NCBI RefSeq assembly: GCF_054482595.1
Contig: NZ_CM137008.1
Strand: one strand, 5' to 3'
DNA: 64,000 nt
The notes below the pieces were generated by a model that saw only the letters and a list, made by a program, of their open reading frames with translations, made no database searches and was not told where the DNA came from. Every line of letters begins with the position of its first letter. The first letter of the stretch is position 1. The position numbers and the translations under genes were made by a program. Positions 59,093 to 59,724 of this stretch are shown here, piece by piece.

Positions 59093-59724
59093 ATGCCGCC
59101 ACGGTGTTTTTTCAGCAGAGCAGGGCTCTGTTTATCGTTCAACTGTGGTATCCGTTCCCTGGCCTTCACGTTGTGTGCAGTGTTCGTTTTATCCTGCAGC
59201 GGCGTTGCCGGTGACTTACTGAAAATACCCTGCGGTTTACGGTTAATGGTCAGCGTTACCATCAGTATTGTTACCTCGTGCTGTCAATGGAAGTGGTACC
59301 TCATCCGGTATCTGAAAATGTTTTCCGGTGGATGGCACAGCGAATGTCATGTAAGACATGCTGTTGCCGGTATTGTTCAGTGCTGTGCGTAGTGAGCGTA
59401 TTCGTTATCAGACTGTACTGGTTGTGAACGATATGACTATGGTGACCGCTACAGTCGGACCAGCCGTACCAATACATACAGCCATGTGCCCTCTGATGCT
59501 GAAAGCCTAAATGATGGTAATGACGACATGCGTATGATAAAATATTACTTGACAAATGATAATGAACACCACTTGCAACAACCAGCAAGACCATTGAATA
59601 GAGCTAATTGGCGAGTACATCTGTAGATAGTACACAATTCATTACGTAAAATGCTGTAATTTCTATCTAGGGTTACGTAAAATATCACGTAACTTAATTC
59701 ATTAAATATTTTACGGATTACAGC

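Follow-up and report, generated by a model that had tools for sequence, protein, structure and literature searches.

A probable autoregulatory DndB operator with two paired palindromes upstream of dndBCDE in Escherichia coli

The region at 59631-59693 of the DNA stretch analysed here (64,000 nucleotides, hereafter the window) is very probably the autoregulatory operator of dndBCDE, consisting of two DndB-binding palindromes of the TACG-N10-CGTA type located 43 bp apart. As shown in an orthologue, one DndB homodimer would bind each palindrome here and dndBCDE would be repressed. The proximal palindrome (box 2) appears to coincide in part with the transcription start and the probable -10 hexamer TAAAAT; DndB bound there would thus deny RNA polymerase access to the promoter. 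The distal palindrome (box 1) would lie just upstream of the -35 region, roughly four turns of the helix away from box 2, where it probably increases affinity or makes binding cooperative. Negative feedback of this kind would cap the levels of DndBCDE and hence the density of phosphorothioate marks. Its importance is that feedback by DndB sets the amount of DndBCDE per cell and therefore the density of phosphorothioation. Operators of this type are already known, and their occurrence in the orthologous E. coli operon involves no new principle; it is the anatomy that is corrected. Overall, the analysis gives the correct coordinates of both boxes of the E. coli operator and shows that the regulatory module travels between islands with the operon.

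The window was found to be part of an E. coli chromosome. Positions 59400-59800 were matched at an identity of at least 99% in 124 of 5,426 complete genomes, including strain 55989, and dndB was annotated there. From 58915 to the end of the window, the sequence was that of E. coli 55989 except for 2 SNPs. The ATG of dndB was located at 59725 with dndC and then dndD directly downstream, and the profile matches (Table 1) showed that a bona fide dndB at the head of a dndBCD(E) operon lies immediately 3' of the boxes. The translated DndB contained both Cys29 and the DGQHR motif, and was 97% identical to DndB of S. enterica subsp. diarizonae. No dndFGH genes were seen upstream of dndB in the window. 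In E. coli 55989, past the position of the window end, a DGQHR-domain protein and a second DndB-annotated protein were encoded on the opposite strand directly 3' of dndE (locus L001, 11447-12401), and this pair could be a companion module to dndBCDE instead of dndFGH.

Table 1. Coordinates of the features at and downstream of the dndB promoter in the window.
Feature	Position	Strand	Description
Box 1, candidate distal DndB operator (BB1 equivalent)	59631-59648		TACAcaattcattaCGTA; TACA-N10-CGTA, one mismatch to TACG-N10-CGTA (A for G at 59634)
First TACGTAAAAT	59643-59652	+	3' half-site of box 1 (CGTA, 59645-59648) plus A-rich flank
CTGTAAT block, candidate weak -35 (CTGTAA, 18-nt spacer to TAAAAT; inferred)	59654-59660	+	Conservation and fixed distance from box 2
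Box 2, candidate proximal DndB operator (BB2 equivalent)	59672-59693		GTTACGT-aaaatatc-ACGTAAC; perfect TACG-N10-CGTA at 59674-59691
Candidate -10 hexamer TAAAAT (inferred)	59678-59683	+	Within the spacer of box 2; matches 5/6 of the -10 consensus
Approximate transcription start, from Salmonella numbering	59689-59690	+	Anchored on primer B1-R
Third TACG	59712-59715	+	Leader, beside the ribosome-binding region (GGA, 59715-59717)
dndB	59725-60810	+	361 aa; TIGR03233 462 bits (cut-off 328); Pfam DndB PF14072 468 bits
dndC, first regulated modification gene	60807-62441	+	TIGR03183 543 bits
dndD, 5' part, continuing past the window end	62431-64000	+	Open frame to the end; dndD annotated at the equivalent position of 55989

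On the upstream side, identity to E. coli 55989 ended at 58914 (58914/58915) within a ProQ/FinO-family gene, which was shortened in the window (ORF 58862-59092, minus strand; 76 aa vs. 114 aa). To the left of this gene was an 895-aa autotransporter gene (56187-58874, minus strand) that was missing from the 55989 context. The 58914/58915 junction is 0.8 kb from dndB on its upstream side and has the appearance of a breakpoint left by recombination or insertion. Further upstream, ORFs 54382-54708 and 54705-55595 on the plus strand resembled the overlapping ORF pair of an IS3-type insertion sequence, and the neighbouring ORF 53717-54298 on the minus strand resembled a regulator fragment, both by reading of the translations only. 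The region around the IS3-type ORFs (54382-55595) looks like a mosaic island.

The original prediction had pointed to TACGTAAAAT at 59643 and 59674, and the motif was read there at 59643-59652 and 59674-59683. These were the only 2 matches in the 64-kb window against 0.16 expected from shuffles, and the direct repeat common to both copies was 11 nt long (TTACGTAAAAT, at 59642 and 59673, 31 nt apart). The TACG-N10-CGTA string proposed at 59674-59691 was likewise confirmed; it was the only perfect occurrence in the window, where 0.51 were expected, and is thus unremarkable alone. When one mismatch was allowed, 11 sites were found in the window, and two of them, 43 bp apart, were located directly upstream of dndB. 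Dinucleotide-preserving shuffles of the 120-bp promoter produced a perfect box in 147 of 20,000 cases, and a perfect box together with a second box of at most one mismatch in 8 of 20,000. It is the pairing of the boxes, and not the single perfect TACG-N10-CGTA, that is surprising. A chance origin of the repeats in an AT-rich intergenic sequence would fit the 31% G+C of the promoter and the single TACG-N10-CGTA expected about 0.5 times per window, but the pair is rare in the local shuffles and its half-sites are conserved in at least 19 alleles while the flanks diverge. This conservation refutes chance, whose probability is negligible.

The two boxes were located at -94 to -77 (box 1) and -51 to -34 (box 2) from the ATG of the window dndB. 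Box 2 was a perfect palindrome, and in its extended form GTTACGT-N8-ACGTAAC had arms of 7 nt with 100% complementarity, while box 1 begins with TACA and has one mismatch; boxes with one mismatch were common among the orthologues. The proposal that the TACG repeats are plausible operators was supported in substance, but the operator unit is the inverted repeat and not the direct repeat TACGTAAAAT. The proposed interval of 59640-59724 also needed revision: both copies of TACGTAAAAT lie inside it, but the partner half-site of box 1 (TACA, 59631-59634) lies outside and the feature starts at 59631.

A third TACG had been counted among the sites. The string is present at the predicted position 59712, but no support was found for an operator role and it is not conserved. 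Its column read TATG or was absent in 6 of the 19 aligned alleles, with TATG in E. coli FORC_041, GMF065, Enterobacter JUb54 and one MAG, and no counterpart in Pluralibacter and Pantoea. The Cerro 87 primer sequence was interrupted at this column (TTTTACACGG), and the third TACG was rejected as an operator half-site. Positions 59600-59724 lacked GATC as well as GAAC/GTTC, which has been reported as the consensus for phosphorothioation in E. coli and Salmonella; the nearest GAAC was at 59564. Direct epigenetic feedback through modification of the operator seems unlikely in view of the lack of GAAC/GTTC within 59600-59724.

The premise that DndB autoregulates by binding TACG-containing repeats in its own promoter was correct according to He et al. 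2015 (Sci Rep 5:12368, PMC4507180), who studied DndB of S. enterica Cerro 87 by EMSA, DNase I footprinting and a lacZ fusion. In that study, DndB was a homodimer and only fragment B1 (123 bp, -85 to +38) was shifted. Two regions, BB1 and BB2, were protected, each with a 5'-TACG-N10-CGTA-3' palindrome, and mutation of the TACG of BB1 and the CGTA of BB2 led to the loss of most DndB binding. Deletion of dndB increased the dndCD transcripts approximately 15-fold, and loss of DndB in Salmonella doubled the modification level and perturbed DNA-repair proteins (PMC4507180). Later papers give the same account of the DndB operator as He et al. 2015 (PMC4507180), and nothing more on this operator was found in the later Dnd papers. 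No solved structure of DndB exists, and a literature search on DndB structure found nothing.

The published footprints were placed on the window through one primer and the printed coordinates, with an uncertainty of 1-2 nt. The reverse complement of primer B1-R (TTTTACACGGATTACAGC) matched the 18 nt just before the ATG in the relatives. As B1-R runs right up to the ATG, position +38 is equivalent to ATG-1, and the transcription start in the numbering of He et al. to ATG-38. BB2 (-14 to +4) then corresponds to ATG-52 to ATG-35, next to -51 to -34 for box 2, and BB1 (-72 to -40) corresponds to ATG-110 to ATG-78, which contains box 1. By this indirect mapping, and within its 1-2 nt, the window boxes coincide with the BB1 and BB2 footprints inside fragment B1. 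In the figure legend of PMC4507180, promoter-prediction software (BPROM, NNPP) is all that is mentioned, and no start-mapping experiment appears in the text, so that the transcription start behind the numbering was probably a predicted one. The pair -66 to -49 printed for BB2 is inconsistent with this placement and is apparently a mistake in PMC4507180. When 88 loci were compared with the two primers, B1-F was absent from all of them and every match to B1-R carried 1-3 mismatches. Exact 23-mers for the Cerro 87 promoter had 0 matches in metagenome contigs, and the supplement of PMC4507180 did not contain the promoter sequence.

Conservation was followed in an alignment of 19 promoters, comprising the window, five diverged E. 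coli dndB promoters and those of 13 species with a DndB at least 93% identical; the seventh E. coli allele was considered outside this alignment. The 6 other E. coli promoter alleles were 77-93% identical to the window and had both boxes in each case. In the 7 E. coli alleles the boxes were located at about -95 and -51 from the ATG, and the column of box 1 read TACG-N10-CGT(A/G) in the six alleles other than the window. Presence of the motif in orthologous promoters had been named as a check of the prediction, and both boxes were indeed conserved in the relatives: among the 13 species, the proximal box was present in all 13 at -47 to -53 and the distal box in 12 at -90 to -97, with 41-45 bp between the boxes. 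The TACGTAAAATAT of box 2 and its right half-site CGT were invariant in 19/19 aligned alleles, and the TTACGT/ACGTAA arms were symmetric in at least 17 of the 19.

The promoter elements were read against the same alignment. The C, T and A of CTrTrA in the CTGTAAT block were invariant or nearly so and kept a constant distance to box 2, and the -35 inferred from this block is poor, with 3/6 matches to the consensus. A simple promoter scan did not call the promoter with TAAAAT at 59678-59683 because of this weak -35. The scan called TAGATA-17-TAAAAT (59624-59652) as promoter-like; this candidate was rejected as a general, conserved promoter, its -10 being specific to the window allele. The spacer of box 2 (TAAAATAT) was invariant while that of box 1 varied, which agrees with a second constraint on box 2 and suggests that the -10 lies inside it. 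The location of this -10 is also consistent with the transcription start of He et al. (ATG-38 in Cerro 87). A reading of the TACGTAAAAT units as -10-like TAAAAT hexamers of tandem promoters, with a repetition unrelated to DndB, draws on the match of TAAAAT to 5/6 consensus positions, on the promoter-like call of the scan and on the second TAAAAT, which is probably the real -10. However, the first TAAAAT is not conserved and reads TAAAAA, TAAAGA or TGAAAA in other alleles. Conservation instead falls on the ACG/CGT cores and their 14-bp register. A role as -10 would not account for this, and these cores are the bases whose mutation cut DndB binding in Salmonella (PMC4507180). Tandem -10 elements are therefore a very improbable explanation of the repeat.

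A total of 80 DndB loci were collected, with one genome per species. Perfect boxes were found 18 times in 1,339 upstream positions vs. 0 in 87,487 background positions. The proximal box was kept down to approximately 75% DndB identity (Aeromonas) and was sporadic beyond. Over the 120 bp preceding dndB, the density of ACGT cores was 25.5 per kb vs. 2.8 per kb elsewhere, a 9-fold enrichment over 71 species, and a gap of 8-9 nt between consecutive cores was dominant, being found in 50 of the 71 species. These sequence comparisons suggest a far wider distribution for the DndB operator than for the exact TACG-N10-CGTA string. The possibility that the TTACGTAA palindromes are sites of another regulator of the host or the island was also weighed, as TTACGTAA is itself an 8-bp palindrome and is present twice. 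The count of this 8-mer alone was within chance, the motif accompanies dndB across genera and in differing insertion contexts, the ACGT cores are enriched upstream of dndB in the 71 species, and the orthologous sites were footprinted with purified DndB (PMC4507180), so that a regulator other than DndB is a highly unlikely owner of the sites.

Arrays of 3-5 ACGT cores with gaps of 8-9 nt were observed within the upstream 110 nt of dndB in Shewanella, Photobacterium, Pseudoalteromonas, Alteromonas and Pseudomonas (L019-L086), and the general DndB operator of the Gammaproteobacteria may have the form of ACGT-N8/9-ACGT arrays. Within the upstream 160 nt, the dndB promoters of Vibrionaceae (L034-L036, L038, L040-L043, L049) had no ACGT boxes and carried other palindromes of the same geometry. 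One Vibrionaceae example, (TG)ACAAAC-N10-GTTTGT(CA), had 5 matches in 11.4 kb of upstream sequence vs. 2 in 486 kb of background. The operator half-sites of the Vibrionaceae may have switched to the ACAAAC-N10-GTTTGT type in co-evolution with DndB.

The promoter and leader also contained two perfect 10-nt inverted repeats, ATGCTGTAAT/ATTACAGCAT at 59651-59660/59717-59726, which reaches the ATG, and CGTAAAATAT/ATATTTTACG at 59676-59685/59706-59715. Two such repeats in 171 nt seem above chance, and Mixta showed an apparently compensatory change. Both points would fit an action of the inverted repeats in RNA, where a leader hairpin with the ribosome-binding and start region would control the translation of dndB. 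However, covariation across the 19 alleles was no better than in shuffles (166/500), the pairing was broken in several alleles and the inferred transcription start is 3' of both left arms. In addition, the predicted leader folds were no more stable than shuffles (z = 0.19 and -1.06). Translational control by such a hairpin is thus extremely unlikely.

Of the 5,426 complete E. coli genomes, 206 had a dndB promoter, and its sequence fell into at least 7 alleles. The neighbours of the E. coli dndB alleles (L002-L006, L087, L088) included an IS3, an H-NS pseudogene near tia, the Zorya gene zorA1, an antirestriction/RadC cluster and an integrase beside tRNA-Thr, which indicates repeated independent acquisition of the operon in E. 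coli. Homology between the alleles started only about 0-30 bp upstream of box 1 and the flanking genes differed. Since homology begins near box 1 despite the differing flanks, the operator moves with the operon.

The window allele was the commonest in E. coli, being found in 124 of the 206 complete genomes with dndB. Of 21 alleles compared, it was the only one in which the G of the ACG core of box 1 was lost, through a G-to-A change at 59634. The exact direct repeat of TACGTAAAAT was also specific to this allele, as the others read TACGTAAAAAA, TACGTAAAGAT or TACGTGAAAAA at the first copy, and a 1-nt deletion in the A-run adjoining box 1 accounts for the 10-nt direct repeat that was noticed first. 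The same deletion makes an additional TAAAAT, with the -35-like hexamer TAGATA 17 nt upstream (59624-59652). With a mismatch at a nearly invariant base, occupancy of box 1 by DndB is uncertain in the window allele. That this allele is a regulatory variant, in which weaker distal binding of DndB and an added promoter reading through box 2 would shift the set-point of phosphorothioation, is a doubtful though conceivable reading. The natural variant of box 1 could serve to gauge the contribution of the distal site.

The C proteins of type II restriction-modification systems are small regulators encoded at the head of their operons which act on paired palindromic boxes overlapping their own promoter. 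They are helix-turn-helix proteins that activate first and then repress. As with the C-protein operators, the operator described here would set the level of expression of a DNA modification or defence module carried on mobile islands. Unlike the C proteins, DndB belongs to the DndB/DGQHR family (Pfam PF14072) and has no solved structure, and only repression has been shown for it.

A study on Streptomyces lividans (PMC6186775) concerns how a sulfur-modified site near the dndB promoter influences the expression of dndB. The two systems are alike in that the dndB promoter is the point of control of its gene and the level of phosphorothioation is limited. They differ in that the window operator (59600-59724) contains no GAAC/GTTC modification site and in that Streptomyces DndB is presumably much more distant.

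Among the closest known systems is that of Cerro 87 (PMC4507180). The window differs from it in box 1, which has TACA and not TACG, and in its leader, which is 2 nt shorter (TTTTACGG vs. TTTTACACGG) and has the TACG at 59712 that is missing in Cerro 87. In both systems, dndB is the first gene of dndBCDE and DndB has Cys29 at the same position, and in both, two boxes of the TACG-N10-CGTA type, one of them with a mismatch in the window, precede the dndB start by no more than about 100 bp and occupy the BB1 and BB2 positions.
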